Positions 7,999 to 61,128 are shown, numbered from the stretch's first letter. The stretch is 64,000 nucleotides of DNA from an uncultured Gemmatimonadales bacterium (GCA_963825055.1 CAWGSK010000013.1:73399-137398); one strand, 5' to 3'. Notes: a model not told the origin generated them from the letters alone. Program-made: numbers and translations.

Positions 7999-8670
7999 TC
8001 AGCGGAAGGTGACGAACTCCTCGAGCGACTTCTTCGTGATGACGGGGACCACCGCGTCGTCGGCGGGATACCCGACGACGAGCACGAGAAAGGCCCGGTC
8101 GGTGGGCGGGCGCTCGAGCAGGTCGTTCAGGAACCCCATCGGGCTCGGGGTATGCGTGAGCGTCGCCAGGCCCGCATGGTGCAGGGCCGTGATGAGCATC
8201 CCCATGGCGATGCCCACCGACTCACTCACGTAGTAATGCGGTACACGGTACCCTGCCGGGTCCAGGCCGTAGCGCTCACCGAAGACGACGACGAGAACGG
8301 GCGCGGTTTCGAGGTAGGGCTTGTACTCGTCCGTGCCGAGGTGCGCCAGCGCGTCCAGCCAGGTCTGGGGCGCCCGGCCGTGATAGAACGCATGCTCCTC
8401 CGCCTCCGCCGCCACCCGGATCCTCCGCTTGAGTCCCGGATCCGCGACCACCACAAAGTGCCACGGCTGCAGGTTGGCACCGCTCGGCGCGGTGCCCGCC
8501 GCCCGGAGGCATTCCTCCAGCACCTCCCGCGGGACCGGCCGGTCACTGAACTGGCGCACGCTCCGTCGCCGCTCCAGCTCCTCACGGAAGCCCTCCGCCC
8601 TGCGTCGCATCTCCTCCTCGGGGTACTCGCGCCAGGTGTCCAGCGGCCGGAACTTCGGTGCTGCGCTCAC
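7999..8670 (-). CDS. Nitroreductase family protein (iodotyrosine-deiodinase-like)
   Basis: [41 protein letters not shown] motif. GTG start overlaps the upstream TGA (GTGA) at 8667-8670. The 412-aa track ORF is an over-extension. Confidence 0.85.
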
Positions 8671-10772
8671 CGGCCTGGCTCCAGGAGCGCGATCGCCGCC
8701 CGGACCCGCTCCGCCGCCCTGGACACGCCACGCGCCAGGTCGGTGACCTCGTCCCGCGCACGCGCCTGGTCCCGGTCCTCCTGGGCTTCGGCGATGCCCG
8801 GCAAGGCAATGTCCGCGTAGCCATTGTTCCGGTCTGACGCGTACAGCAGGTTGCGCCGCCAGGGCCGGCCGACCAGGCCCTCCGGACGGGACATCGCCGG
8901 CTCCACCTGGCGAAGCGTACCATTCACCCGGGCCAGCAACCCGCGAGGGACGCCAGCGGTAGCCAGTCGGGCGAGACGCGCCCGGTTGAGGGACTCCCCT
9001 GCGTCGGTAAGCAAGGTGATCGCGGCATCCAGCGAGTCGTACGGCAACGCCCACCCGAGGCTGTCGGCCGCACGGCGGGATGTCGCGGCCAGGTCCGCCA
9101 GGCGCCGGCCCAGGACCGCATAGTCGAAGGGCTCCACGTCCGCATTGGCCAGCCGGGACATTGCCACGGCGACCAGGCGACCGGCGGCAGCATGACTCAG
9201 GTAGCCGGGGTCGCCGAAACGCTCCATCCAGGTCCATGTGTCATAGGCCGCATGGTACACCCCGATCGGCCCTCCGAAGCCCATCTCCAGCGCCGGCATC
9301 CCCAGGTGGCTGTAGAACCCGCCGAAATCGCTCCCGCCTCCCATCACGCCGGGAGTGACGTCCGAACTGTCTCCGGGCTGGCGCGCGTCGCGCCAGGCCT
9401 GGTATACCGACATGGTATCGTCCGGCTGGCGCACCGCCCGCGTCACCTCGCGGATGAATGGATAGAGGGATGGGGTCCCGGCGGCCCCGAACCGGCGCCC
9501 GAACGCGGACATGTCCTGGTTCAGGTAGGCTACCAGATGCTGCAGCAGGTCGTCCTCACGCGACTCCACCCATTCCGTGCTGCCCACCAGTCCCCACTCC
9601 TCCGCATCCCAGGTCGCGAAGATCACGGTCCGCCGCGGACGCCGGCCCTGGCGTGCCGCGGTTCCCATTGCGCGCGCAGCCTCGAGCAGGCTCACCGTGC
9701 CGCTGATGTTGTCCGCGGCGCCGGGACCCCAGGCATCGCGGTGCCCGCCGGCGATGACGATCTCGTCCGGCCAGTCGGTGCCCCGAAGCCGCCCGAAAGT
9801 GTTGGTGATGGTCTTCCAGCGTCGCTCCTCGGGCTCGAGCCACACCGCAACACGGACGCGTGTCGCCGAGTCACCGACGTGATACCGGAAGGGGAGTGCG
9901 CCCTGCCAGGGCTGCGGCACCGAGGGACCGCCAAGCTGCCCGAGAATGCGCGCGGCATTGCCGTATCCCAGCGGGATCACCGGGATGTGCGCGACGTCGA
10001 GGCTGTCCGGGGGGAGCCGGCGCGCGCCGGACACGGAGGACCACCCCGGTGTGGTCGGGTCCCCATCGGCGTTCAGGATGCTCCCGCGCTGTACCGCGTC
10101 GGGGCCGCGCATGGGGCCGTCGGGATAGACATCCCCACGGAAGTAGCCGTCATCCTGCGGGTCCGAGTAGAGTATCAGCCCAGCCGCCCCATGCGCTTCG
10201 GCCTCGCGCGCCTTGATGCCGCGGAAGCTGCGCCCGTAGCGCGCGATGACCACCCGGCCCTCCACCGGTACCCCGAGCCGCTCGAGTGCCTCGTAATCCT
10301 CCGCCAGTCCGTAGTTCACGTACACCACCGGCGCCGTCACGTCGCCTTCCCCGCTGGACCCGTTCATCGCCGGCCAGATTCCCGACTGCGTGGTGGGATC
10401 ATCCGGCAGCGCAGGCTCATCCAGGCGGAACCGCCTCGGGGCCGCCCCTTCGAGTTCCACCAGCTGCGAATCCGGATAGGGAAGCCAGACCCGGAACGAC
10501 ACCCGACTGGTGTCGAGTCCCCAGGAGGCCATCTGCCGCAGCACGTATTCGGCCGTCCGCTGCTGCGCAGGGGTGCCGGCCACGTGCGCCTCGGCCGAGA
10601 GGGCGTGCGAGTGCGTCCGTGCGCTCGACGGATCGGGAACGGAGGTAAGCAGCGCTTCAATCTTCGACTGCTGCGCCCAGGTGGCAGGGGTGAATCCCGC
10701 CGGGCGGTCCTGCGCGACGGCGGGGACGGAGGACAGCACGAAGGCGGCAGCCAGCAGGCCGTACATGCGCAT
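8667..10772 (-). CDS. M28 peptidase, glutamate carboxypeptidase II / transferrin-receptor-like
   Basis: 701 aa with a signal peptide, a PA-domain-like segment, the [17 protein letters not shown] and [13 protein letters not shown] zinc-site motifs, and a C-terminal dimerisation-like helix region. Confidence 0.85.
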
Positions 10773-10831
10773 GCGTTGGTATCCTGTGGTGAGGGCGAAG
10801 CTGGAAGGAAATCAGGCCGGGGCCGAAATCG

Positions 10832-11914
10832 CTACCCCTCCGACTGCCGGGGGCGCCGCCCGAAGGTCATGAGTCGACGCAGTCGCCACGTATGGCGCCC
10901 GACTGGATGCTCGGCGAGCTCACGCCAGCGCGCTGACGGGCGCGCCGGCCAGAACCGGGACGCGACACCATGCATCCACGCCGAGGGCGCATGCTGGAGC
11001 GCGAGTTGCGCGGCGATCGGTGCCCGTGCCCGGCGACGCTCGAGCCAGGTGCGGGTGCCCATCCATCGGCGAAGCGGGGCCTGGGTCCAGCCGCCCGGGC
11101 CGCGGATCCGTTCCGGGAGGCCGAGGCGCCGGAGATCGTCAGCGAGAATGGCGCCGAGGGGATGGTCGATCTCGGTGTCGCCGAGATGCAGGAGTACGTC
11201 GAGGAGGAGGATGGCCTGCCAGCCCCCGTGGCGGATGTAGTGCCGGATCAGCAGCTCGAGCTCGTGCGCCGGCGACGGAATCCACATCCCTTCGCCCCAC
11301 GCCCGCCGGTGGGCGAGCATTTCGGCGGTCCCGGGAGACCCGGCCGAGGGCGGCTCGATCCGCCAGTGCACTTCGAGGATGTCATCCCAGCCGGGGATAT
11401 ACGGACGCTGGAACCTGACATGGAACAACTCGCGCGACGGGGACGACCACGGCGAGTAGCCCCGGTCGGTCAGGAAGCGGGTGACCTCCTCCACCGATGC
11501 CCACGGGACGAGAACATCGAGGTCGCGCGAAGGACGGATGGCACCGGAGCCGTACAGGCGCTCGGCCATCGGCGGGCCCTTCATGACCAGCCACGGAACT
11601 CCGGCGCCCTCGAGCAGGTCACGCATCTCGGTGAGCTGCGCGGCCCCGCGCTCCGCGGCGAACCCCGCCAGCCCGACCGCCCGGGCGATGTTGCGGTACG
11701 GTGTCTCCGGGAGGGAACGCAGGTCGGGACCGAGCAGTTGCGCGGCCAGGGGCGCCAGGCGGCTCACCTCGACGTCCACCGCGCCCGCTGCCCACTCCGC
11801 CGGTTCGGGCGAAGCAGCCGGGAGGCCCAGGGCGCGGTGAAGCGTCCAGACGAGGAACGGGTGTTCCCTCTTCAGTGGGCGGCGGCGGCCAGGCAACGTG
11901 CGATCTCCTCCCAT
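10832..11914 (-). CDS. Uncharacterised nucleotidyltransferase (NTP_transf_5-like), RiPP-cluster associated
   Basis: 360 aa; VMKGPPMAERLYG...RPSRDLDVLVP...HWRIEP pattern of the PF14907-type family (from memory). Overlaps the kinase gene by 43 bp. Confidence 0.65.
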   Translation of the reverse strand: MGGDRTLPGRRRPLKREHPFLVWTLHRALGLPAASPEPAEWAAGAVDVEVSRLAPLAAQLLGPDLRSLPETPYRNIARAVGLAGFAAERGAAQLTEMRDLLEGAGVPWLVMKGPPMAERLYGSGAIRPSRDLDVLVPWASVEEVTRFLTDRGYSPWSSPSRELFHVRFQRPYIPGWDDILEVHWRIEPPSAGSPGTAEMLAHRRAWGEGMWIPSPAHELELLIRHYIRHGGWQAILLLDVLLHLGDTEIDHPLGAILADDLRRLGLPERIRGPGGWTQAPLRRWMGTRTWLERRRARAPIAAQLALQHAPSAWMHGVASRFWPARPSARWRELAEHPVGRHTWRLRRLMTFGRRPRQSEG

Positions 11915-12738
11915 GCGTTCGACATCTGCTCCAGGTTCCCGGGCACGGTCAATCGCCAGACGGGCACGGCGGCGGCGAGCCCCCCGACCAGGTCGTGCCA
12001 GGCCGGGGTGGGCTCGGACTCCAGCCAGGAGAGGAATCCAGCATCAACCATGCCGGGGAGACGTGCAACCCCGCGCAGGGCTTCACACTGGACCTTCGAG
12101 CCCCTCTGGAGCAGGAACAGGCCGCGGAGGAGGCCCGGTTCCCCGGCCGGGAGGTCGTACCATCCCCGGCCGTCGGGAAGGACGAGCCTGGGCGACCAGT
12201 CCTGCGGGGCGAGCTCGGGGGGAACCCGCAGCGACCCCGGCAGAGGCAGGATCCCCGCTTTTCCGTCCAGGGCAAGGAGGTCATCCCCCCGGACAGGCCA
12301 GCCGTGTCTCGTGGCCAGCCCCGCGAGGGAGGACTTCCCACGCCCGGACGGGCCGGCGATCGCCACTGTCCCTCCCGGGGTTTCGAGCCCAGCCGCATGG
12401 AGCGGGTAGCATCCAGCGGTGGCGATGGTGAACGCCGTCAGCGGCCCGGTGAGCCGGGTCAGGTGCGCCGGCGAATGTGGATCATGGCCGGGGTCAATAC
12501 TGAACCGGAGTCCGCCATCGAGACGGACCTGGTATCCGCACCCGTCCGGGTACCGCAGACCCCATCCATCCGGAAGGCGCCAGACCGCGGAGCGCCCCTG
12601 CGGCGTATCCGCATGGCGAACCGCCCGAGGATCCGGTGCGACGGCAGAACGCTCGATGATCGGAAGGGGGAGCCCAAGCGCCGCGGAAAGCGCGCACCAC
12701 GCCGCCGACGGATCGGGCGGCGACGGGGCGAGAGGCAC
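11872..12738 (-). CDS. HPr-kinase-related kinase (HprK-rel-A type), putative RiPP kinase
   Basis: LHAAGLETPGGTVAIAGPSGRGKSSLAGLATRHGWPVRGDDLLAL matches the HprK C-terminal P-loop/GDD arrangement. GTG start lies 9 bp after the peptide stop. Confidence 0.75.
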   Translation of the reverse strand: MPLAPSPPDPSAAWCALSAALGLPLPIIERSAVAPDPRAVRHADTPQGRSAVWRLPDGWGLRYPDGCGYQVRLDGGLRFSIDPGHDPHSPAHLTRLTGPLTAFTIATAGCYPLHAAGLETPGGTVAIAGPSGRGKSSLAGLATRHGWPVRGDDLLALDGKAGILPLPGSLRVPPELAPQDWSPRLVLPDGRGWYDLPAGEPGLLRGLFLLQRGSKVQCEALRGVARLPGMVDAGFLSWLESEPTPAWHDLVGGLAAAVPVWRLTVPGNLEQMSNAWEEIARCLAAAAH

Positions 12739-12746
12739 GGAGGAAA

Positions 12747-12893
12747 TCAGCTGCCGAACGCTCCGTCGCTCACGTTGAGCCCGGCCCCACGGGTCAGGTC
12801 CTGGACCCGGCCCAGCGTTTCGAGCCGGGGGGGCTCGAACTCACGGCGGGGTTCGGGACGTTTGCTGTCAGGAGGACGGGACGTGTCTGTCAT
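12747..12893 (-). CDS. Putative lasso-peptide precursor (48 aa)
   Basis: MTDTSRPPDSKRPEPRREFEPPRLETLGRVQDLTR|GAGLNVSDGAFGS. The leader fits (Y/F)xxPxLxxxGxxxxxTx exactly. The core has Gly1, Asp8 and a C-terminal Ser. A GGTGAGG Shine-Dalgarno-like sequence lies upstream of the ATG at 12893. Confidence 0.6.
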   Translation of the reverse strand: MTDTSRPPDSKRPEPRREFEPPRLETLGRVQDLTRGAGLNVSDGAFGS

Positions 12894-14298
12894 GGGCGAC
12901 CTCACCAGGGGAATGGTGCACTTCCACGAAGTGTAGTATGCCGAGTCCACTCCATTGGGTCAAGAAATCGTCGTGCAGGTCAGCCGGCGTGATCCGCCGC
13001 GGAAGCCACGGGATCTCCAGCTGTTCCTGCAGCCGTTCCCAGTCATCCACCATCGCCTGCGCCTCGGACATCACCCGCTCCCTGATCCAGAGGGAAAGAT
13101 CCGCCTTGTCCACCCGACGGACAACCGGCGAGGGTAGGTGCGGTGCGACGGCCTCGCGGAGCAGGGCGCGTGGGAGCCAGCGCGAACCTACCCGAGGACA
13201 CCGGAACCCGGCGACGGCTTCGATGACCCCTCGATCCAGCATCGGCAGGGCGAGCTCGAGGCCCGCCCGGCGAACGGTGGCCGCGGCCATCCGGGTCCGC
13301 CACGCCAGACGGGGATCAGCAAGCGTGTGACGGAGCGCCGCGTGCCGCCAGCTCCCCGCAGAGGCGGCGGCCCCTCCGTCGAGCCCGAGCCGGGACGGCC
13401 GCATCGCGCTCAGGACACCCCGGCCGAGCGTGCGGAGTGCGCCGGCCCGCCGGCGGGCGAGACGGGCCCGGAGCGCGACGGCCGTACCGGCCAGGATCCG
13501 GCCACTCCTGAACAGGTCCACCTCCAGGCCCCGTTCCGCGAACACCTCATCGCCCCCGACACCCCACGCCATGCCCTGGCACCCCGCGCGCCGGGCCAGC
13601 GCGCCGGTGGCGGCGTGCACGGCCTCCATGGCGTCCACCAGGGGCGAATCTCCCCGGGCCATGGCTGCTGCGGACGCCGGCCAGAGCAGCAGCCCGGCGG
13701 CATTCACGGTTGCGAGTTCAAGGCCGAGGTGCGCGGCGACGGCGTCCTGCCACTCGGACTCGTCGCAAGCCAGGCCGGGAAATCGTGCCGAGACGAGCAA
13801 CGGAAGCGGCGCGGCCTCACGCCTCGCGGCCTCCGCCGCCGCGGCCGCGAGCGCTGACGAATCCAGGCCGCCGCTCAGTGAAACGGCCATCCGGCCCGTC
13901 GCAATCACGTGCCGCTGCATCGCCCCCACGAGCGCCTCCCATACCGATTCCGTTGCATCGCCGGGAACGGGAACGGACCACCACGTCATCGGGGAGCCGT
14001 GGGGCTGGCATTCACGCCCGCCTGGGACACAGGTCACGTCGCGGAAGGGGGACAGCCCGGTGAAGCGTAACGCGGCGAGATCCTCGAGCACGTCGAGGTC
14101 GGGAACGGCGCATGGGGTGAGTCGCGCGAGTCGTGCCGGGTCGAGCGCCAGATGGAGGTGGGGGCCGATGCTGCGCAGGCATGCGAGGGGATATACCGGG
14201 GCGGAACGCACGACCGGCCCCAGGGAACCATCGAGCCATCCGGGGTCCGCGCCTGACGCGAGCCCGGGGTCGTGGAGAACGATCCGGGCGGAGGTCAA
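12868..14298 (-). CDS. Asparagine-synthetase-like protein (lasso cyclase-like), short N-terminal domain
   Basis: 476 aa with the PP-loop motif AVSLSGGLDSSALAAAAA. There is no N-terminal Cys nucleophile. 4-bp overlap with the PqqD-like gene. Confidence 0.8.
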   Translation of the reverse strand: MTSARIVLHDPGLASGADPGWLDGSLGPVVRSAPVYPLACLRSIGPHLHLALDPARLARLTPCAVPDLDVLEDLAALRFTGLSPFRDVTCVPGGRECQPHGSPMTWWSVPVPGDATESVWEALVGAMQRHVIATGRMAVSLSGGLDSSALAAAAAEAARREAAPLPLLVSARFPGLACDESEWQDAVAAHLGLELATVNAAGLLLWPASAAAMARGDSPLVDAMEAVHAATGALARRAGCQGMAWGVGGDEVFAERGLEVDLFRSGRILAGTAVALRARLARRRAGALRTLGRGVLSAMRPSRLGLDGGAAASAGSWRHAALRHTLADPRLAWRTRMAAATVRRAGLELALPMLDRGVIEAVAGFRCPRVGSRWLPRALLREAVAPHLPSPVVRRVDKADLSLWIRERVMSEAQAMVDDWERLQEQLEIPWLPRRITPADLHDDFLTQWSGLGILHFVEVHHSPGEVAHDRHVPSS

Positions 14299-14585
14299 CG
14301 GGGCGCCGCCCGGTGGAGAAGCCCCTGCTCCACCAGGCTACGGACAATGCCGGTCAGCATCTCCCAGCGGGCGTGGCCGTCGACCGGCCACGCCGCCAGG
14401 CCCCGGTCCACCTCGCCCAGGTCCTCGCCACGCGCGAGCGCGGCCCAGACTTCTGCGCCGGACCGGTTCAGGCTGTAGTAGGTCCCGGCATCGAGATCGA
14501 GGAGGACCAGCTCGTCGTCCAGTTCCCGGCTGCGCACCGCGGGAGCCGGCACGAACCGGTCCCCGCGCGCAAGGGGTTCCGGCAT
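14295..14585 (-). CDS. PqqD-family protein (RiPP recognition element, B1-like)
   Basis: 96 aa; RSRELDDELVLLDLDAGTYYSLNRSGAEVWAAL is a typical PqqD/RRE signature. Confidence 0.8.
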   Translation of the reverse strand: MPEPLARGDRFVPAPAVRSRELDDELVLLDLDAGTYYSLNRSGAEVWAALARGEDLGEVDRGLAAWPVDGHARWEMLTGIVRSLVEQGLLHRAAPR

Positions 14586-14589
14586 GATG

Positions 14590-16101
14590 TCAGGGAATCT
14601 GGCCGGTGACGTCCCAGATCATCAAGGCCGGGCTGGAGGGATTCTTCGCGCCGAACACATACACCCGCCCCCCGATGTACCCGAAGGTGGCCGTGTGAAT
14701 CCCTGTCGGGACCATGTAGGACGTGATCCGCGTCGGGCGGAGCGGATCGGCCAGGTCATACAGGTAGATCCCCGAGCCGGTGCCGTTTTCACCGCTGAAG
14801 AGCAGCATCCGGCCATCACGCGACACCTCGACATCGCTGATGGTGATGATGCCGGAGGTGAGGATCGAGTCCGCAAGGGTCGGCGCGCCGGTGGCATCCA
14901 GCTGCCAGATCTTGAGTGCGTTGCCCGAATTCGATGGCCCGCCCGACGCGCGCAGTCTCCAGGTCCCCGTGTAGGCCACTCCGCCGTGCACCCAGAGGTC
15001 GGACGTGAACCGCTCGGGCACGTTGCCACCGCCAGCCACCCTGGAGAGCACCCCGCCGTTCGACGACAGCTGGTAGAGTCCGTTCAGCATGTCCGTGGCG
15101 TAGACCGAGCCGTTGTATTCCTGCACGCCCCAGACGTAGGTGCTGTCAGGATTCGGGGGGAAAAAGCTCAGTACCCTGCTGTTCAGGCTCCCACTCAGGA
15201 CGCCGGAGATATCCAGCGCGAGCACCCCGCCATTGTAGTAGGCGGCATAGAGGATTTCCGCCTGCTCGTCCACCCAGAAGTTGTGCGTGCCGAATCCGCT
15301 GCGATGGAACGTCGCGACCTGGACCGGCTTCCGCAGGTCGGTCACGTCCAGGACGAAAATGTCACCCGACGCCGCGGTACCGATGACGCCCGGACCCTCC
15401 TGTCCGAGGAAGAGGTACTTCTTCTCCCCGGTGTTGGGATTGTGGAACCACCACGAATTGTGCACCGCGCCGCCGCTCACCCCGACCGTACCCGCGAGCA
15501 CGGGGGTCGAGGGACTTCCGCCCACGATACCGTTGCCGACGTCGTAGATCCGCATGCCGCTGTTCCACGCGCTCACGAACGCGAGGCCATCGCGCACGAA
15601 GGTGTCGTGGATGCCGTAGTTGGGCGGGATGGCGACCTGTGCGACAAGGACAGGCCCGGTGGTCCCCACCGACGTGACCGTGAAGCTCACGGCGGTCATG
15701 GTGGCATCGGTATTCGCCAGCGACGGCGCGCTCGCCTGGACCTTGCTGGTCAGGGTTCCCGTGCCAAGGCGCACCGTCATGTATGCCTTCCCGTCGGCCC
15801 CGGTGCTGGACTGGCTCGAGTCGACCGTCGCGTTCCCCGAGGTCACGCTCCACTGGACCGGTACACCGGCGAGCGGCGTGCCGGAGGTGTCGCGCGCCAG
15901 TGCGGCCAGCGGGGTGGGAAGCACTGCTGCTTCCGGACCCTTCTGGTGGTTTCCTCCTCCGATCGACAGCACCTGGCCGCTTCCGGCCGGGGACGGCGGT
16001 TGCGAGGGGTCGTTCGGGCCGGTGGCTGGTGCATCCGACCTGCACGCGGTGACAACCCCGAGCAGGACGAGCGGAAGGAAGGCATGTCGCATTCGTGGCA
16101 C
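14590..16101 (-). CDS. Lipoprotein with Ig-like (Big_2-like) domain and LVIVD/beta-propeller-like repeats
   Basis: Lipobox LLGVVTAC; Ig-like segment GVPVQWSVTSGNATVDS...; repeated hydrophobic-D/G propeller-like blocks. Its stop is 4 bp from the PqqD start. Confidence 0.55.
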   Translation of the reverse strand: MPRMRHAFLPLVLLGVVTACRSDAPATGPNDPSQPPSPAGSGQVLSIGGGNHQKGPEAAVLPTPLAALARDTSGTPLAGVPVQWSVTSGNATVDSSQSSTGADGKAYMTVRLGTGTLTSKVQASAPSLANTDATMTAVSFTVTSVGTTGPVLVAQVAIPPNYGIHDTFVRDGLAFVSAWNSGMRIYDVGNGIVGGSPSTPVLAGTVGVSGGAVHNSWWFHNPNTGEKKYLFLGQEGPGVIGTAASGDIFVLDVTDLRKPVQVATFHRSGFGTHNFWVDEQAEILYAAYYNGGVLALDISGVLSGSLNSRVLSFFPPNPDSTYVWGVQEYNGSVYATDMLNGLYQLSSNGGVLSRVAGGGNVPERFTSDLWVHGGVAYTGTWRLRASGGPSNSGNALKIWQLDATGAPTLADSILTSGIITISDVEVSRDGRMLLFSGENGTGSGIYLYDLADPLRPTRITSYMVPTGIHTATFGYIGGRVYVFGAKNPSSPALMIWDVTGQIP

Positions 16102-16111
16102 GGAAGCCCCG

Positions 16112-17386
16112 TCAGTGGTGAGTCGGTGAGGGCGAGAGCAGGCCGTAACGACCCATGCGGTGCATCGGGCCGCCGGCGGTCAGGCGGACGCCAAGCGTGA
16201 GCGCCTCGAACGACTCCCGGCCATACAGCCCCTCAACCGTAAAGACGCCGCCCCCGACCTTCCGTGCACGCCCGAGGGAGACCTCGCCGAACGGCTCCGC
16301 CGCGAGCCAGGACAGCGGTTCGAAACGAAAGCCATAGCCGACCGTGTGGATGGTCCACCGGCTGGTCCCGAGAATGGAGTTCTCCCGGTGGGGGCGGAGC
16401 GAGCGGAACAGGTCGGCGGTCCGCTCCTCCTCGGGACGCGAGGTACGCTCAAACCGGTACCAGGCCTGGTGCCGGCCCGGGCTCACCGCCGCCTCGACCA
16501 GCACCGTGTGAAAGACGAAGAAGCCGTTGAGCTCCGAGTTGCGGGCCCACTCGGCCATGGCGTACACCGGCACGCCGAGCGCCGGACCCTTCCAGCGCCC
16601 CGAGAGGCTCCACTTGCCCTGGGTGCTGCCCGCCCCCGGGCGATGCTCGGGAGACTTCACCTCCGCGTGCGATCCCTGCAGCTCCAGGCCCGTGACCGGT
16701 TGCACCAGCAGCCTGGCGGACCAGGAGTCCCCGAATCGCTCCAAGCTGGGCCATTGCCCGGGCCGCTCCGGTTCATCGCCGTTGAACAGCCCCGCCTCGA
16801 GCGACAGCGGTCCCAGGCCGACGGCCGCAATCGCGACCGCACGCTCCAGAATCTGGCTCCAGTGGTGGTTCACCGGATACCGGAGCACGGGGCGGTTCAT
16901 CGGGTCGTCCGTCCCGTACGGCGCGAACCCTTTCCCCACCGTAACGGAAGTGTGGAAGGGGCCCTGGCGGTTGCCGAACGGGTCCACGAGGCTCGCCAGC
17001 AGTTCGTGCACGTAGGTGTGCGGGTGGCGGCGGTCGACGAATCCCTCGCCCCAGATGCCGGGATCGAGCTCGCCGCCGGGCATGGTCCAGCCCTCGGCGT
17101 TCCCGGTGGCGGTGAAGCGGAGCCGCCCCCCGAGGACCCCGGCGTGCAGCATGAGGACGGGCTGCACGACCCTGATCTCGTCCAGCGCGCGGCCACCGGG
17201 TATCGGATTGACCCGGGTCCAGGACGGCACGGCCTGGGCCCGCACGCGAAACCAGGCGTCAGGCGCCTGGGCGCTCGCCGGAGGCGACGTCAGGACCAGG
17301 GCCAGAAGTGCGACTGGCAGGCCGGCCGGGTGGGGGCGCGGCAGGAGGGGGGGCATCGTGACTCCGGAGTCCGGGAGGGGCGACAT
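16112..17386 (-). CDS. Hypothetical secreted / outer-membrane beta-barrel-like protein
   Basis: Signal peptide ending PPASAQA and a C-terminal aromatic-rich beta pattern. No family recognised. The start may be the internal M at 17356. Confidence 0.45.
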   Translation of the reverse strand: MSPLPDSGVTMPPLLPRPHPAGLPVALLALVLTSPPASAQAPDAWFRVRAQAVPSWTRVNPIPGGRALDEIRVVQPVLMLHAGVLGGRLRFTATGNAEGWTMPGGELDPGIWGEGFVDRRHPHTYVHELLASLVDPFGNRQGPFHTSVTVGKGFAPYGTDDPMNRPVLRYPVNHHWSQILERAVAIAAVGLGPLSLEAGLFNGDEPERPGQWPSLERFGDSWSARLLVQPVTGLELQGSHAEVKSPEHRPGAGSTQGKWSLSGRWKGPALGVPVYAMAEWARNSELNGFFVFHTVLVEAAVSPGRHQAWYRFERTSRPEEERTADLFRSLRPHRENSILGTSRWTIHTVGYGFRFEPLSWLAAEPFGEVSLGRARKVGGGVFTVEGLYGRESFEALTLGVRLTAGGPMHRMGRYGLLSPSPTHH

Positions 17387-17432
17387 TCCCTCGTTCGGAC
17401 GCCGCGCCGGCCCCGGGTTGCACAGGGCGACG

Positions 17433-18179
17433 TTACCTGGTGGTCACCGACGCCTTGAGGTAGTCCCGGTTCATCCGCGCGATGACGTCCAGCGGGATCA
17501 CTTTCGGACAGGCCGCTGTGCATTCACCATGGTTGGTGCATCCGCCGAAATGTTCCAGGTCCATCCGGGTGATCATCTCCAGGGCACGCCGGTCCCGCTC
17601 CGCCTGGCCGTGGGGCAGCCGGCCGAGGTGCGAGATCTTGGCGCCGGTGAAGAGCATCGCGGAGGCGTTGGGGCAAGCGGCCACGCAGGCACCGCAGCCG
17701 ATGCAGGCCGCGGCGTCCATCGCCTCCTCGGCCACGTCCTTGGGCACCGGGATGGTGTTGGCGTCCGGGGCCGACCCGGTGGAGATGCTGACATAGCCGC
17801 CGGCCTCGATGATCCGGTCCAGCGCGCTCCGGTTCACGACCAGGTCCCGGACGACCGGGAAGGCGCGCGCCCGCCACGGCTCGATGACGATCCGGTCGCC
17901 GTCCCTGAAGCTTCGCATGTGCAGCTGGCAGGTTGCGGTGCCGGGCATCGGGCCATGGGCCATGCCGTTGATCATCATGCCGCAGGAGCCGCAGATCCCC
18001 TCGCGGCAATCGTGGTCGAACGCAATGGGCTCCTCGCCACGCTCGATCAGCCCCTCGTTCACGACGTCGAGCATCTCGAGGAATGACATCTCGGGACTGA
18101 TGTCAGTGGCCTCGTACGTGACCATGCGGCCCTGGTCGCCCGGGCCGGCCTGTCGCCAGACGTGCAGCGTGAGCTTCAT
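17433..18179 (-). CDS. sdhB: Succinate dehydrogenase / fumarate reductase iron-sulfur subunit
   Basis: [23 protein letters not shown] and [12 protein letters not shown] cluster motifs. Confidence 0.95.
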
Positions 18180-46176: not shown

Positions 46177-48675
46177 CTAGAACTCCTTCTGAAGCAGCTC
46201 CAGGGCGCGTACCAGATCCGGCACCTCGTCCAGCACCGGGAGCAGAGGGTCTTCCTTCATACCGGTCAGGCGTTCGGGCATGGTTTCTATCGTGAATGCG
46301 GCAATCGAAAGGTCGGGGTTGACTTCGTCCCAGGTCAGCGGCGTTGAGACCGGGGCGCCGGGGAGCGGTCGGACGCTGTAGGGGGCCACCAGGAGCCGCC
46401 CGTGGCCGTTCTGGAGGAAGTCCACGTAGACCTTTCCCTTCCGGCGGGAGACCTGGCGGGTAATGGTCGCAATTTCCGGCAGGCGCTTCACGATCGCCCG
46501 GGCCAGCACCTCGCCGAGGGCGCGGGTCTGCTCGAACGTGAACTGGCGGCCAACCGGCACCAGGACGTGCAGGCCGCTCGAGCCGCTGGTCTTGATGTAG
46601 TTGGGCAGCGCGCACCGCTCGCAGAGGGCGTGCAGTTCGTTCGCGATGGCCACGACATCCCCGAAGGGCGCCTCCTTCGGGTCCAGGTCCAGGATGCACC
46701 AGTCGGGCCGCTCGAGCGTGCTGATCCGGCTACCCCAGACATGCAGCGGAATCGCCGCGCTGTTGGCGAGGTAGATGAGCGACGCGATGTCGTCACAGAC
46801 GAAGTAGTCGATCTCGCGCTCGGCGTGTTCGCTCCACATCCGCTCGGTGCGAAGCCACTCCGGGATGTACTCCGGCGCGTCCTTCTGGAAGAAGCTCTTG
46901 CCGTCGATCCCGTCCGGATATCGCGTCAGGACCACCAGCCGGTCCTTGAGGAACGGCAGGACCCAGTCGGCCACGCCGCGGTAGTACGCGATGAGGTCGC
47001 CCTTGGTGTAGCCCTCCTCCGGCCAGAAGACCTTGTCCACGTTGGACAGCGGCACCTGGTCGGGGTCCATGGGCGGGATCTCCACGACGGGCAGTGGCGG
47101 CGGCTCGCCCTCCGACTCATCGTGCAGTTCGGCGATTTCCTTGTCATCCCGGAAGCGCTCGAACACCGGGTGGCGCAGCAGCCCTTCCTTCGTCCGCTCC
47201 TTGAAGCGGACCTGCGCCACGAATTCGGGTTCCACCCACGTCGTGTCCTTGAGCTTCGGCGCGCCCTCGCAGGGCGGATCCTTCCGGGCCGAGGCCTCGA
47301 GGCTGGCCCGGATCTCGCCGAGCCTCGCCGGGTCCAGCCCGCTGCCCGCCCGTCCCGCGTACACGAGCCGGCCGTCTCGGCGCTCAGCCAGGTGGAGGGC
47401 ACCAATGCCGTCCCGGCTCCCTTTCGGCTCGGTGAACCCGACCACCGCGAAGTCCCCGTTCTGGTCAGCCCGGATCTTGACCCAGTCGGCGCTCCGGCCC
47501 ATGTGGTACGGGCTGTCGGCCTTCTTCCCGACGATACCCTCCAGCCCGAGGGCCGTCACCTTCTCGTACAGGGCCTCCCCCAGTTCCTCGAAGTCCTCGA
47601 CATACCGGAGCGGCCCGACCGGCGGGAGTACGCGTCGGAGCAGCGCCTTCCGCTCGCGCAGGGGCATGCGTCGAAGGTCCCGCCCCTCCAGGGAGAGCAG
47701 GTCGAAGGCGAAATAGGTAACGGGGTTGCCCGCCGAGGCGACCGCGACGTCCCGCGGGCGGGAGAGGCGGGCGCGCTCCTGCAGCCGGTCGAAGCTCGGC
47801 ATGCCATCGGCGCCGAGTGCCACGACCTCGCCGTCCATCAGGAAATCGTGGAACGGCAGCGACTTCACGGCGAGCGCGACTTCGGGAAAGTTGGTGGCGG
47901 CGTCGTTTCCGTTCCGGGTGCGTACCACCACCTCGCCATCGCGGCGGCCGGCCAGGATCCGGTAGCCGTCCAGCTTGAGCTCGAAGAGCCACCCCTTCCG
48001 GGTGAAGGGGCTGTCGCGCTGCTCGGCCAGCATCGGGCTCACCTCGTCGGGAGCGGGCGCGGGGTCGGTCACGCCGTCGGCATCGAGTTCCTGCCGGAGG
48101 GCCTCGCCGGGATGCACGCCGTCCCGCAGCTCCTCCACGGTGAGGCCCGACAGGATGGACTGCGGCGGCACCGTACTGTCGTCCTGTTCGGTCCCCTCGG
48201 CTTTCTCCCGTATCAGGAGCCACTCGTTCTCGCCCTTCTTGAGCTTCACCAGCGTCCAGATGCCGCGCATCTTGTAGCCCCGCAGCTCGAACAGCAGCTT
48301 GCCCTTCTTCCATCCCTCCTCGATGTCCTCGAGCGGGAGCCACACCCCGCGGTCCCAGAGGATCACCGCGCCCGCGCCATAATTTCCCTCCGGGATCAGG
48401 CCCTCGAAGTCGCCGTAGTCGAGCGGGTGGTCCTCCACATGGACCGCCAGGCGCTTCTCCTTCGGGTCCAGGCTGGGCCCCTTCGGGACCGCCCACGACT
48501 TGAGCACCCCGTCCATCTCCAGCCGGAGGTCGTAGTGCAGCCGGCGGGCGGCGTGCTGCTGGATGACGAAGCGCTGGCCGCCCGGCCGGATGGCCTTGCC
48601 GGCGGGCTCCGGTGTGCGGCTGGGGGTGCGTTTCTCCCGGTAACGCTTGAGGGGGTCGGGTCCGGTTGCGGGCAT
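46177..48675 (-). CDS. ligD: ATP-dependent DNA ligase D (phosphoesterase-ligase-polymerase)
   Basis: PE domain FVIQQHAARRLHYDLRLE...WAVPKGPS, ligase adenylation motif FELKLDGYR, and a C-terminal primase-polymerase domain (SGSSGLHVLVP). Start trimmed to MPATGPDPLKRY. Confidence 0.92.
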   Translation of the reverse strand: MPATGPDPLKRYREKRTPSRTPEPAGKAIRPGGQRFVIQQHAARRLHYDLRLEMDGVLKSWAVPKGPSLDPKEKRLAVHVEDHPLDYGDFEGLIPEGNYGAGAVILWDRGVWLPLEDIEEGWKKGKLLFELRGYKMRGIWTLVKLKKGENEWLLIREKAEGTEQDDSTVPPQSILSGLTVEELRDGVHPGEALRQELDADGVTDPAPAPDEVSPMLAEQRDSPFTRKGWLFELKLDGYRILAGRRDGEVVVRTRNGNDAATNFPEVALAVKSLPFHDFLMDGEVVALGADGMPSFDRLQERARLSRPRDVAVASAGNPVTYFAFDLLSLEGRDLRRMPLRERKALLRRVLPPVGPLRYVEDFEELGEALYEKVTALGLEGIVGKKADSPYHMGRSADWVKIRADQNGDFAVVGFTEPKGSRDGIGALHLAERRDGRLVYAGRAGSGLDPARLGEIRASLEASARKDPPCEGAPKLKDTTWVEPEFVAQVRFKERTKEGLLRHPVFERFRDDKEIAELHDESEGEPPPLPVVEIPPMDPDQVPLSNVDKVFWPEEGYTKGDLIAYYRGVADWVLPFLKDRLVVLTRYPDGIDGKSFFQKDAPEYIPEWLRTERMWSEHAEREIDYFVCDDIASLIYLANSAAIPLHVWGSRISTLERPDWCILDLDPKEAPFGDVVAIANELHALCERCALPNYIKTSGSSGLHVLVPVGRQFTFEQTRALGEVLARAIVKRLPEIATITRQVSRRKGKVYVDFLQNGHGRLLVAPYSVRPLPGAPVSTPLTWDEVNPDLSIAAFTIETMPERLTGMKEDPLLPVLDEVPDLVRALELLQKEF

Positions 48676-48701
48676 ACCGGCAATATCATACTGTACAGTC
48701 C

Positions 48702-49544
48702 ATGAGCGCACGTCCCATCGCCGCGGCCAACATCTCCTTCGGCCTGGTCTCGGTGCCGGTCAAGCTGTACTCCTCCTCGGAGTCCTCGGCCAGCATCTCG
48801 TTCAACTGGCTGCACAAGGAGTGCAGCTCGCGGCTCAAGCAGCAGTACATCTGCACCAATGACGACCAGGTCGTCAGCCGTGACGACATGGTCAAGGGCT
48901 ACGAGTTCGCCAAGGGTCAGTACGTCACCTTCACGCCCGAAGAGCTGAAGACCCTGGACGAAAAGGCCACCAACAGCATCGATGTCAGCGAGTTCGTCCC
49001 GCTCGAGGAGGTCGAGCGGCTCTATCTCGACAAGACCTACTATCTGGGGCCCGACAAGGGCGGCGACCGGGCCTACCGGCTGCTGGCGAAGGCGCTGGAG
49101 GAAACCGGCCGCGCGGCGGTGGGCCAGTACGCGGCCCGCGGGCGGCAGTACCTCATCCTCATCCGTCCGAAGAACGGCATGCTGGTGCTCGAGCAGTTGC
49201 ACTACGCCGACGAGATGCGCCCCGCCACCGAGGTCCCGCTGGAGGAGGGCGAGGTCAAGCCGACCGAGCTCGAACTCGCCAAGCAGCTCATCGAGCAGAC
49301 CGCCACCGACGAGTTCCACCCGGAGCGTTACAAGGACACCGTGCGCGACCGCGTCATGGAAGCGATCCAGGGCAAGGTGGAGGGCGAGGAGATCACCGCC
49401 GCGCCCGCCGAGGAACCGCAGGCCAAGATCATCGACCTCATGGCCGCCCTCAAGGCCAGCCTCGCGAAGAAGGGCGAGGGAGCCGGCGAGGATGCTGAAG
49501 AGAAGCCGGCGAAGAAGAAGGCCGCGAAGAAGAAGGCGGGATGA
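48702..49544 (+). CDS. ku: Ku protein (NHEJ)
   Basis: ISFGLVSVPVKLY...YLGPDKGGDRAYRLL... with a Lys-rich C-terminal tail. Start at MSARPIAA. Confidence 0.93.
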   Translation: MSARPIAAANISFGLVSVPVKLYSSSESSASISFNWLHKECSSRLKQQYICTNDDQVVSRDDMVKGYEFAKGQYVTFTPEELKTLDEKATNSIDVSEFVPLEEVERLYLDKTYYLGPDKGGDRAYRLLAKALEETGRAAVGQYAARGRQYLILIRPKNGMLVLEQLHYADEMRPATEVPLEEGEVKPTELELAKQLIEQTATDEFHPERYKDTVRDRVMEAIQGKVEGEEITAAPAEEPQAKIIDLMAALKASLAKKGEGAGEDAEEKPAKKKAAKKKAG

Positions 49545-54355: not shown

Positions 54356-57300
54356 TCAAGATCCTTCGGGGATATCATGGCCGCCCTCGAGAAGCTCTCC
54401 GACTCTAATAGTCACCGTTCCCACACGTGTATTAACTGCTGCGGTTATAGAATACAAGTTTCCTTGGTTAATCATCACCCCTGAGTACCTAAGAGCGCCC
54501 CGCGCTGTTCTGTAGGGATTACTAGGGTAGTGCCCTTGATTCGGATCAATCCGTAGTTGGAAGAACGTTGGGCCAATACTGACCGAATTATAATGCGGAA
54601 CTAATCCAAAAATGGCCCTGCCCCTTATGATTGTCCTGTACACAACGTTCTCTGTCCATTCTTTATACTCATCTTCACCACGTGTAAGCCTGTTGTAATA
54701 TGCCGATAGGATTATCCGTTCGCCCGGTGAGAAAATGTAAGGCTCTGGGTCCGAAGCATTCGCCTTCTCTTGTTCCTCCCGTTCTTGCCTACGTTCGGCT
54801 TTATGTTCAGCCCAAGCATCTAGCGCGGCTTCATTGAGATCCGCCCATGTCGTGAGGGCGCCGCCTAGTCTTTCCCCCAACGACCCTTGTCCTGACCCTC
54901 CAATGGTGCCGTCACGATTCATGCAGAACAAATTCCCGCAGTTTGCTGTCCACCCTGATTCATAGTCCATATTCATCCCAGAGGGATCCCTCGCATCCAA
55001 CACCTGTCCGCCCACGTAAGAGTAGACGTTGGCACCACCACCATACCCGATCGGATCCTCCTGCACAAACCGGAGCATGTCGGGGCTGTAGTACCGGGCC
55101 CGATGGAAATACCAGCCCGTCTCCGCGTCGTATTCCCGCCCGGTCCACCGGTACCGGAGCCCCGGATCCGTCCCGGACTGGGTTTCCTGGTTTCCATATG
55201 GGTCGTAGCTGACGGCGTACTTCCAGGTCCCGTTCCGCTGAGTCAGAGTCCGGACGCTCCCCAGTTTGTCCTGGGCGGTGTAGTAGTGGTTCCCGGCGGC
55301 ATCCCGGAGCGCCAGCAGGTCATCGGTGCCCAGGCCCCAGGTGTAGCGCCACCCGATGGTCGAGCCCGCCGAGTCCGTCTCGAAGGCCACGTGGTCTCCG
55401 TGGTACACGTACCGCGTATACCCCACCGTCCCCCCCGTCGCGGAGCTGTAGACCCGCTTGGCGATGCGGCGGCCGAGGACGTCGTACCCGTATCGGACGA
55501 TGAGGGTACCGTTCCGGCGCACACTCCGGAGCCGGTTCAGGGCGTCATAATCGTAGGTTCTGACCTCCACCACGGACGAGTCCTTCGTCAGATTCCCGTC
55601 GCGGTCGTAGGTGAACCAATGCGTGTAGCCACTTGTTTTCCGTTGCAGAAGCCGAGAGGTCACGGTGTGGTAGAATTCAGTCCCTCCTGGGGTTCTGATA
55701 TTGCCATTCTTGTCGAAGGAGAAGGTGAGGCTGTCCACCGGGAAATGGCTGCTGTTCTGGTGTTGTACCCAGCTGATGACCCGGCGCCAGCCGTCATACA
55801 CCGTGCTGTCCTGCAGGCTGTCCAGCCCGCTCGCATTGTTCCGGCCGGTCCACAGGTTACTCAGCGCCGGCCCCGGCATGGTATCGGGCCCGGTGGGGTC
55901 GGACGCGCGCTCGTAGCGCCCGAGGGTGTAGCCGGAGATTGTGGTGTGGCGCTCGTCCAGCTCGCCGGTCAGCGCGTAGCTCAGATTGGTGTGCGCGGCC
56001 CCTGACGGCGAGGCAATGCGCACGACCGCCGGCCGGCCCCGGCCATCGAAGGCATAGGAGACCGTATCCGCCCACGGGGTGAGGAGCGAATCCGCCATGC
56101 CGCGGAGAGTCTCATACTTCGTCGTCCAGGTCCCGAGCGCGTCCGTTACGGTGGCCGGGCGCTCCCAGGTATCGTAGGTGTAGCTCGTAGGCCTTGCGAT
56201 GCTGCCGCTCTTGGTCGTATCCGTCTTGAGCCGCCCACGCTGGTCGTAGGTCCAGGCTACCGCCCCAAGGACCTTGCCGATCGAGTCCACCTGACTCGCC
56301 CACCAGATCCTGGTGACCTGATCCAGGGGACCGGTGTACTTCGTCTTCCGGTCGCCCACGGTGGGAATCGTTGTCAGAGTGTCCCGGTTCCGGGAATCGT
56401 ACCAGGTCTCGATGGTGTAGCCTCGGCGAGTGATGGACTTCTTGAGGTTTCCGGCCTTGTCGTAAACCATTGAATCCTTGACAGCCATGGAGTCGGTCCA
56501 GGGTCTACGGCTCAGGAGGCGGCTCAGCCGATCGTACACGTACATCGTCGCCGTTGTGTCGGTCGTGTGGATCGTGAGACGCAGGGAATCACGCCCCGCG
56601 CGGTCCTTGACGAAACCCACATGCTGCACACGAAGCGTGTCGGTAGTCAGCGGCCATGAAGGTGTGTTACACGGTGCCGTGCAGTCGTCCGTGCGCAGAC
56701 TCATGCTGGTGGTCACCTCGTTGGCCGTTGTATAGACCTGTCGGCCCCGGCGCCACTGATACTTGACGGCGGTGCCGGTGGACTTGACCGGAATCTTGCT
56801 GTCATTGGTGGTGTCACGGCCCATGATGTCATACAGGACCTGGCTGACCACTTGGCCGGACTCATCGATGGTCTGCCAGGGGTTTCCCCAGGTCGTCTCG
56901 TAGGTCATGTGGCGGGATTTCGACGACCCCGGAAGACGGACGGAGTCCACCTGGCCGTTCGACTTGTACCAGGTCAGCGTGACGTTGCCCTGCGCATCCT
57001 TTGCATAGATCAGGTTTCCGTTGGCGTCGTAGTCCAGGCTGTCGACCTTGTTCCGATTGTCGATCCGCTTCACGACCCGGTGGTTGCCGTCATAGACCAG
57101 GCTGTCGCCGCGCAGGGTATCCCCCGCGGCCCGGATGATGTACGTCTTCACCACCCGCTTGAATGCATCGTAGGCAGCGTACGTTCGGCTGGAGTCCGCC
57201 GTCTTGCCCTGCGACCAGAGGAGAAAGCCGTCCGCGTCGTACTGGGCCTCGGAAAGTGTGCCGAGGGCATCCCAGCTCTTGAGCGCCTGGGCCCACCGGT

Positions 57301-60465: not shown

Positions 60466-61128
60466 CTACAGTGACAGAAACTTGCGGAGCCAGATCAGCC
60501 AGGCCGGCACACCTAGGATACGCAATTGTCCTAACTCGCGCTCGCGCTTCGGGACGTCTTCCCACCACTCGGTTTCCAACGCGTGTCTTGCTTCGTCTGC
60601 GAGTAATGTAGCGTCAGGCAGTTGTGTAGCAAAGTCGATCTCGGCCCTTACGCAGATTTGTTCAATCCGTCTACGGTTGCGCGGAAGATACCGGATCCCG
60701 GCTCTATAGACTCGAGCATGGGTCGCCTCGTGAACGAGCGTCATGGCCAGACTAGCCAGTGGTGCGGTCAAGATGTGTCTCGCGCTTAGCACACAAGCAT
60801 CAAGGAAATGCCAGTAGGATCCTGCACTGCCACCACTAGGCCCGATGATGATTCGATGAAATGCCTTTCGCATCCTGTTGATGCGCCCAGGCTCAGCATC
60901 TTCGATAAAGTCAAGCAGTTCCTCAATTCGTTCGAAAAGCGTTTCCTCCTGCTTGATTTCCGAGAAATTCGCAACATCGAACCTTCCAACTACGCGGACC
61001 ACCGACAGGCGAAATGCCGCTTGTAGCATGAGGGCCTGAATGGTGGATCGAATGGCCCCGGGGTTCAGAGTCAATCGCAATGGCCTGGTCTCAGTCCTTC
61101 TTTTGATCTTCATCTGGCTTCGTTTCAT
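60466..61128 (-). CDS. HExxH-motif protein in the immunity position downstream of Rhs-2
   Basis: The start (M at 61128 or 61113) overlaps the Rhs-2 3' end. Lower-GC region. LAMTLVHEATHARVY resembles a thermolysin-like zinc site. No TM helices seen. Confidence 0.55.
   Translation of the reverse strand: MKRSQMKIKRRTETRPLRLTLNPGAIRSTIQALMLQAAFRLSVVRVVGRFDVANFSEIKQEETLFERIEELLDFIEDAEPGRINRMRKAFHRIIIGPSGGSAGSYWHFLDACVLSARHILTAPLASLAMTLVHEATHARVYRAGIRYLPRNRRRIEQICVRAEIDFATQLPDATLLADEARHALETEWWEDVPKRERELGQLRILGVPAWLIWLRKFLSL

Follow-up and report, generated by a model that had tools for sequence, protein, structure and literature searches.

A conserved 48-codon precursor gene and its probable lasso-type RiPP operon, in which no B2 leader peptidase was found, in an uncultured Gemmatimonadales bacterium

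Does a 48-codon ORF wedged between an asparagine-synthetase-like gene and an HprK-like kinase gene in an uncultured Gemmatimonadales bacterium encode a lasso peptide precursor, and if so, how might so small a precursor be matured? The ORF lies in a 64,000-nucleotide stretch (GCA_963825055.1 CAWGSK010000013.1:73399-137398), the whole of which is called the window here. A sequence-only reading of this DNA had proposed a lasso precursor with a very short core, and that interpretation is supported by the analysis that follows: the 48-codon ORF is confirmed as a real, conserved precursor gene of a very small lasso-type peptide. I put at roughly 75% the probability of a fuller reading, in which the ORF is the precursor gene (A) of a five-gene lasso-type RiPP operon, B1-C-A-K-N, that yields a phospho-tailored Gly1-Asp8 macrolactam and does not itself encode the B2 leader peptidase. 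The precursor gene is of the expected type; what is distinctive is the naturally B2-less, minimal cluster in an unexplored phylum.

The precursor ORF

Translation of the minus strand from 12893 to 12747 gives MTDTSRPPDSKRPEPRREFEPPRLETLGRVQDLTR (leader) followed directly by GAGLNVSDGAFGS (core) and a stop codon, which reproduces exactly the 48-residue peptide quoted in the sequence-only reading. Public data also list this ORF as a gene of 48 aa (P0008). The sequence-only reading had named no strand; a plus-strand reading of 12747-12893 gave an unrelated peptide and was rejected. The features of the gene are as follows.

12747..12893, minus strand: precursor gene A, 48 codons plus stop, product MTDTSRPPDSKRPEPRREFEPPRLETLGRVQDLTRGAGLNVSDGAFGS
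12789..12893, minus strand: leader peptide, residues 1-35
12839..12789, minus strand: B1-recognition motif FEPPRLETLGRVQDLTR, F19-R35, with Thr at -2
12750..12788, minus strand: core GAGLNVSDGAFGS, 13 aa, with Gly1, Asp8, tail GAFGS and Ser13
12906-12900, minus strand: Shine-Dalgarno-like GGTGAGG, 6 nt 5' of the ATG, within the 3' end of the cyclase gene
12935..12963, minus strand: sigma-70-like promoter pattern TTGACC-17-CATACT, about 40 nt 5' of the precursor ATG, in the 3' end of the cyclase gene

In lasso leaders, YxxPxL spans -17 to -12 and Thr occupies -2 (PMC10368454). The segment FEPPRLETLGRVQDLTR fits every specified position of the consensus YxxPxLxxxGxxxxxTx, with F replacing Y and Thr at -2, just as had been described. 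Scoring with a precursor model, a check that had been proposed, gave a match to the curated NCBIfam lasso-leader model NF033521 (lasso_leader_L3) at 19.0 bits against a cut-off of 19, with residues 20-36 aligned. A relaxed leader-plus-core regular expression matched once in the six-frame translation of the 64-kb window, at the precursor ORF, against a Markov-2 expectation of 0.03 matches per 64 kb. A real precursor located elsewhere would, according to the sequence-only reading, have refuted it; no other precursor-like ORF was found in the window.

The core begins with Gly, ends with Ser and contains Asp8 as its sole acidic residue. These residues suit the 8-residue macrolactam envisaged earlier, and a Gly1-Asp8 isopeptide ring with a 5-residue tail is predicted for GAGLNVSDGAFGS; by analogy with other Ser-ending lasso precursors, Ser13 is its predicted phosphorylation site. 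The calculated [M+H]+ of the core would be 1133.522 as the lactam, 1213.489 with one phosphate and 1375.541 with a phosphate and a hexose.

The 26-nt overlap of the precursor ORF with the cyclase ORF (12868-12893) and the GGTGAGG site were both found as claimed, and the latter is unchanged in the relatives L001 and L002. The sigma-70-like pattern occurs once in positions 8000-17500 of the window, with 0.3 occurrences expected, and coincides with conserved cyclase codons (FLT), so that its own conservation is uninformative. It is a possible, if weak, candidate for an internal promoter that would give the precursor its own transcript.

Conservation of the precursor and its relatives

Close relatives of the cyclase are few: a search of 5.8 billion clustered proteins yielded two, 89% and 69% identical, and there were none among the 185,579 species representatives of GTDB or in JGI metagenomes, where scans with the cyclase alignment recovered only distant Asn-synthase relatives (20-52% identity, partial matches). 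The B1-C-A-K-N clade is rare. The contigs of both close relatives carry a small ORF at the equivalent place, and further loci were found through relatives of the kinase. Conservation of the small ORF, on which the sequence-only reading had staked its interpretation, is what these contigs display: small ORFs from homologous PqqD/AsnB/HprK neighbourhoods align and occupy the equivalent slot in all the related contigs that were retrieved, which represent four diverged lineages. The precursor ORF is conserved in L001, L002, L005, P0009, L004, L091, L095 and L094, and lies in the slot between C and K in L001, L002, L005, L004, L091, L092 and L095; the contigs of P0022, P0023 and P0019 were too short for informative gene context. 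In L004, whose kinase is 49% identical to that of the window, MTAQSTSAAAAGQEKAPRPFEAPRLKPLGRIQDITR followed by GTGSTFSDGFFGS stands between cyclase and kinase. The gene order in L091 is like that of the window (sdhA, sdhB, a 420-aa protein, Big_1, PqqD, C, A, K, N), and L095 has Big_1, PqqD, C, A and K in this order. The operon genes are intact and syntenic across lineages whose cyclases are only 37-44% identical.

Alignment of ten precursors reveals seven invariant residues: P(-14), L(-12), G(-8), T(-2), Gly1, the ring Asp and the C-terminal Ser, which in window numbering are P22, L24, G28, T34, G36, D43 and S48. Other Ser/Thr positions of the precursor vary, and only S48 is kept in 10/10. 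The tail after the ring Asp is five residues long in all ten, with a strictly conserved hydrophobic residue at its position -3, and it is the ring (8 or 9 residues) that takes the indels. All ten family precursors match NF033521, five of them at the cut-off or above. Furthermore, when 1.84 billion representative proteins were searched with a precursor profile, 18 matched. Most of these are lasso-like precursors of 48-65 aa, the closest of which have the cores GTGLITTTDGFFGS, GTGTNPFNDGVFGS, GTSGLESTDAIFGS and GTGSGTVDGASGS.

At the DNA level, the alignment with close relatives contains an in-frame 3-nt indel and synonymous changes, and pN/pS is 0.22-0.47 over motif plus core in the diverged pairs, an excess of synonymous over amino-acid changes. 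Judged by these sequence comparisons, the peptide frame is under purifying selection.

Several observations concern neighbouring sequences. Sample ERZ25039549 (ENA) contains two strain variants, represented by L003 1030-2531 and L001 1033-2559, one with a cyclase 100% identical to the window's and the other with one 89% identical; in the variant with the 100% identical cyclase, Big_1 is split into ORFs of 335 and 178 aa, either by a frameshift or by an assembly error. Outside the window, the proteins P0017 (199 aa), P0020 (137 aa) and P0025 (268 aa) consist of repeats that pair a lasso-leader-like YEPPRLxxLGxxxELT with 'SDxRLKxD'. The latter segment matches the N-terminal part of Pfam Peptidase_S74, the endosialidase-chaperone autocleavage motif (five stretches in P0025, E=1e-23), and the repeats could represent a multi-core precursor architecture. 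Finally, L010 1170-1472 (+), in the Terriglobia MAG JAIQFU010000512.1, is a precursor-like ORF (…YSAPRLVTYGSVAKLTKVKSGSVTDSAGGKGNDLPPTRRH) between a cyclase and an HprK-like kinase. Val would be its core position 1 after Thr(-2), which may point to an atypical cleavage site or ring chemistry.

The operon, its enzymes and the search for B2

The precursor gene belongs to a run of five minus-strand genes, B1-C-A-K-N, which are tightly packed, either overlapping or separated by gaps of at most 8 nt. The other four are listed here.

14295..14585, minus strand: B1, PqqD-like RiPP recognition element, 96 aa; PF05402 at 30.5 bits (cut-off 23.4)
12868..14298, minus strand: C, Asn-synthetase-like putative macrolactam synthetase, 476 aa, TTG start; PF00733 at E=9.5e-23 over residues 121-419
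11872..12738, minus strand: K, HprK-like P-loop kinase, at most 288 aa with an uncertain start; 8 nt 3' of the precursor stop
10832..11914, minus strand: N, PF14907 nucleotidyltransferase-like protein, 360 aa; PF14907 at E=1.1e-24; 43-nt overlap with K

B1 scores under the cut-offs of both lasso PqqD models, NF033530 and NF033536, and has orthologues at the equivalent position in L001-L003, L091 and L095. Its stop overlaps the start of the cyclase gene by 4 nt. The cyclase contains the PP-loop SGGLDS, but alignment with the 555- and 634-aa cyclases of L006 and L007 shows that it has little of their N-terminal GATase-like domain. It falls far under the cut-offs of the lasso and albusnodin cyclase models NF033535 and NF033561 (35.6 vs 525 bits and 39.3 vs 300, respectively), and its sequence has no match in the PDB. 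An AF2 model of the cyclase is unreliable, with a pLDDT of 52, too low to warrant a fold search. The region around Cys40/His49 at its N-terminus corresponds in the alignment to what remains of the GATase-like domain, namely the C-terminal part of that domain. A cryptic protease there was considered and rejected; Cys40/His49 are kept in the closest relatives, but not in L092 or L095.

K has weak matches to the NCBIfam models TIGR04355, TIGR04352 and ScmC. Residues H114, K135, D152 and D153 are invariant across nine kinase homologues, and lasso-tailoring kinases carry a His-Lys-Asp-Asp motif (PMC9266682). A profile of the K family matches the HprK/P structures 1ko7, 1jb1, 2qmh and 3tqf (55-70 residues, E ~3e-5) as well as PEPCK, and four of the nine family members reach Pfam Hpr_kinase_C, window K on its own staying under the threshold. 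The AF2 model of K has a pLDDT of 83.9 and its top PDB folds in Foldseek are PEPCK and HprK/P; K thus models as an HprK/PEPCK fold. A PF14907 gene is found 3' of K in L002, L005, L091 and L004 too, and one is present in L006, which has a canonical cluster.

The operon is flanked on its 5' side by genes for a Big_1/choice-of-anchor-B lipoprotein, a 424-aa protein and sdhB/sdhA, and on its 3' side by a secreted M28 peptidase gene. The M28 peptidase lies outside the conserved unit, because L091 has a sulfatase there; with its signal-peptide-like N-terminus and this replacement in L091, it was rejected as a candidate leader peptidase. A Big_1/LVIVD/choice-of-anchor-B lipoprotein gene stands directly 5' of B1 in every lineage examined, with a 4-nt gap in the window (window 14590-17386 (-); L091 1589-4441; L095 3-1391), and on its own 5' side the window and L091 both have the gene for a 420-424-aa protein without a Pfam match, and sdhAB. 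The Big_1 and 424-aa genes are syntenic with sdhAB and more conserved than the RiPP cluster genes. They are unlikely to be cluster members, and their position looks like chromosomal synteny; the alternative would be a functional link, in export or as a receptor.

Three features of the locus were absent from the sequence-only reading: the N-terminally short cyclase, and the failure to find either a B2 or an exporter. No B2 leader peptidase (PF13471) was found among the plausible ORFs of the 64-kb window, and a six-frame search of the window with an HMM built from five true B2 proteins gave a best E of 0.16, compared with E<=1e-40 for true B2. B2 was likewise not found in the related loci L091, L092, L095, L002 and L004. 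In the canonical kinase-bearing relatives L006 and L007, B2 lies between B1 and C, and the cyclases of 555-634 aa have GATase_6/7 matches. As for the exporter (D), none of the ORFs in the interval 8.0-17.4 kb of the window showed an ABC transporter domain.

B2 is not indispensable everywhere: pseudomycoidin was matured in both E. coli and B. subtilis without B1/B2 (PMC6993621). B1 can accelerate phosphorylation, a role independent of B2 (PMC10368454), and the retention of B1 without B2 in the window operon fits such a kinase-assisting role. Lasso genome mining generally uses B2 as a marker, a bias that has been noted (PMC6993621), and B2-less clusters would be overlooked because mining relies on this marker. 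A DnaB protein encoded in the window shares a 90% cluster with a protein annotated 'Gemmatimonadales bacterium', which puts the source in Gemmatimonadota. Lasso clusters in this phylum have so far only been predicted (PMC11316326). A B1-C-A-K-N operon maintained by selection without B2 in a Gemmatimonadales lineage would be a natural, rather than laboratory, case of leader-peptidase-independent maturation, and points to uncharacterised RiPP chemistry in Gemmatimonadota.

Maturation, threading and alternative readings

How might these genes act together? The operon resembles the pseudomycoidin cluster psm of Bacillus pseudomycoides, in which an HprK-like kinase and an 'NTP transferase', PsmN, are encoded beside A, B1 and C, and whose precursor also ends in Ser: this C-terminal Ser is (poly)phosphorylated by PsmK, after which one or two hexoses are attached by the NTP-transferase-like PsmN (PMC6993621). 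PsmN is likened to window N by its functional description. Pseudomycoidin can be matured without B1/B2 by way of a host protease, and the window operon is without B2; unlike the window operon, psm encodes both B2 and an ABC exporter, and its product of ~2.6 kDa has more than twice the mass predicted for the window product (PMC6993621). The psm gene order also differs from B1-C-A-K-N, and its host is a Firmicute.

The window system is similarly comparable to paeninodin and the ThcoK/SyanK peptides, with their His-Lys-Asp-Asp kinases, linear precursors as kinase substrates and conserved C-terminal Ser, and with a split B in which the PqqD-like B1 is separate (PMC9266682). These clusters differ from the window operon in encoding B2 and an exporter, and N is missing from the paeninodin cluster pade (PMC6993621). 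On sequence grounds, then, the window system would share with the phosphorylated lasso class its precursor type, RiPP recognition element, kinase motif and C-terminal Ser, but not its B2 and exporter. A putative lasso cluster of Stanieria cyanosphaera PCC 7437 is like the window operon in comprising a cyclase, a precursor and a PsmK-like kinase with no leader peptidase, but this uncharacterised cluster, compared here by its description only, has no B1 and has a recognisable glycosyltransferase (PMC6993621), whereas the window clade keeps B1 and carries a PF14907 gene. Finally, the metagenomic locus L006 (JGI 3300080621) has the order B1-(B2)-C-A...K...N and a core, GAINTGSDMTIYS, which is like that of the window in its 13 residues, Gly1-Asp8 ring, 5-residue tail and C-terminal Ser. 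Its kinase is ~25-38% identical to window K. Unlike the window, L006 has B2 (PF13471), a 555-aa cyclase with GATase_6/7 and an extra O-methyltransferase.

From these parallels I infer the chemistry and topology of a product of the paeninodin/pseudomycoidin kind, which by analogy might possibly be glycosylated in addition. The PqqD-like B1 would bind to the leader residues F(-17), P(-14), L(-12) and T(-2), as suggested by the motif and the Pfam match. With the leader still attached, the HprK-like K would phosphorylate Ser13, as in paeninodin and pseudomycoidin, and the PF14907 protein N would elaborate the phospho-Ser, for example with a hexose as PsmN does. A protease from outside the operon, either a B2 encoded elsewhere or a housekeeping enzyme, would then cut after Arg(-1), and the short Asn-synthetase homologue, given its PP-loop and the conservation of the core, would adenylate Asp8 and close the Gly1-Asp8 isopeptide. 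This would yield a macrolactam of 13 residues, five of them in the tail, in which, if it is threaded, Phe11 would sit above the ring and the modified Ser13 would form the lower lock. Against this best explanation stand the failure to find B2 and an exporter in the window (and B2 in the related loci), a cyclase without most of its N-terminal domain, cyclase and PqqD scores under the cut-offs of the lasso models, and the very short tail, considering that purified unmodified pseudomycoidin is a branched cycle (PMC6993621).

The kinase step deserves a qualification. Kinases phosphorylate the C-terminal Ser of linear lasso precursors (PMC9266682), and the earlier claim that the terminal Ser is the target of HprK-like lasso kinases agrees with a Ser invariant in ten of ten precursors and with the HprK-like character of the adjacent P-loop protein; as a general rule it does not hold, since BsfK targets Ser3 and not a terminal Ser (PMC10368454).

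The earlier remark that the core is at the lower size limit for lasso peptides is borne out by huascopeptin, a class II peptide and the shortest known lasso peptide, which is also 13 aa long and starts with Gly1 but has a 7-residue Gly1-Asp7 ring (PMC12427821). Six residues are thus left outside the huascopeptin ring, as derived from length and ring size, compared with a predicted ring of 8 and tail of 5 in the window core. Huascopeptin comes from a Streptomyces with a canonical cluster and is not known to undergo kinase or NTase tailoring. No characterised lasso peptide is known to have a tail as short as five residues, and the 13-14-residue cores of this family, with their invariant 5-residue Ser-ending tail, are at or below the known size limit.

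It is close to an even call, if on the short side of one, that the same gene and chemistry lead to an unthreaded product, a branched-cyclic (head-to-side-chain) lactam, the tail being too short for an 8-residue ring. With GAFGS as the only tail, a tail length that is always five in the family, six residues outside the smaller ring of the 13-residue huascopeptin (PMC12427821) and a branched cycle formed by pseudomycoidin in the absence of the K and N modifications (PMC6993621), such an outcome gains support. What speaks against it is that tail length and the hydrophobic residue at -3 are fixed while the ring takes indels, which implies a structural constraint on the tail, and that K and N could add a bulky lock of the kind speculated on for pseudomycoidin (PMC6993621).

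A different alternative accepts the lasso but not the missing peptidase: B2 would be encoded elsewhere in the genome, beyond the 64-kb window, and the operon would be part of an ordinary split lasso cluster with a canonical pathway. I regard this as a realistic prospect, yet one I would bet against. The source contig is at least 327 kb long, of which the B2 search covers 64 kb; B1 is kept, and the leader retains Thr(-2), a classical B2/B1 recognition residue (PMC10368454). However, the B1-C junction is without B2 in four diverged lineages, closed in the window by the 4-nt overlap of the two genes, at the very place where canonical relatives have B2, and the retention of B1 is also accounted for by roles independent of B2, including kinase stimulation (PMC10368454).

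Returning to the preferred reading of a phospho-tailored macrolactam, its most specific form is a minimal B2-less lasso in which a short cyclase and a recognition element would suffice to wrap an 8-residue ring round a 5-residue tail, with phospho-serine (with or without a hexose) as the lock. Zyubko et al. speculated that a bulky C-terminal modification may serve as a lasso lock (PMC6993621), and the fixed tail length and invariant terminal Ser fit this speculation. This form is unlikely. If true, it would have the shortest known tail and a lock that is not a bulky amino acid, the 'third locking strategy' of Zyubko et al. In either case, the operon offers a compact system for two questions, namely whether a post-translational C-terminal modification can act as a lock and what the minimum needs of a lasso cyclase are.

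It is improbable that the Asn-synthetase homologue performs other chemistry, such as amidation of or transfer onto Asp8 or the C-terminus, yielding a non-lasso RiPP that possibly retains its leader. The low scores with the lasso cyclase models (35.6 vs 525 and 39.3 vs 300 bits), the truncated N-terminal domain, the lack of a PDB sequence relative and the B2 not found would all suit such an enzyme, but the invariant Gly1, Asp at 8/9 and Thr(-2) are the architecture of a lasso precursor, and among complete clusters that encode kinase homologues, the nearest are canonical lasso clusters. Finally, that the ORF is a chance frame, or the operon a decaying relic without product, is largely refuted: the missing B2, exporter and part of the cyclase and the rarity of the clade are outweighed by five genes that stay intact and syntenic at 37-44% cyclase identity, by purifying selection on the peptide frame and by a motif expected only 0.03 times per window.

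Elsewhere in the window, two large RHS-repeat proteins are encoded at 54356-59278 (-), 1640 aa, and 61091-63538 (-), 815 aa, in a region (53-64 kb) that is far poorer in ORFs passing the GC3 filter than the remainder of the window and may be a toxin or polymorphic-toxin island. At 46177-49544, a LigD-like gene (844 aa) lies beside a Ku-like gene (292 aa), both recognised by eye in translations, and the pair suggests non-homologous end-joining.
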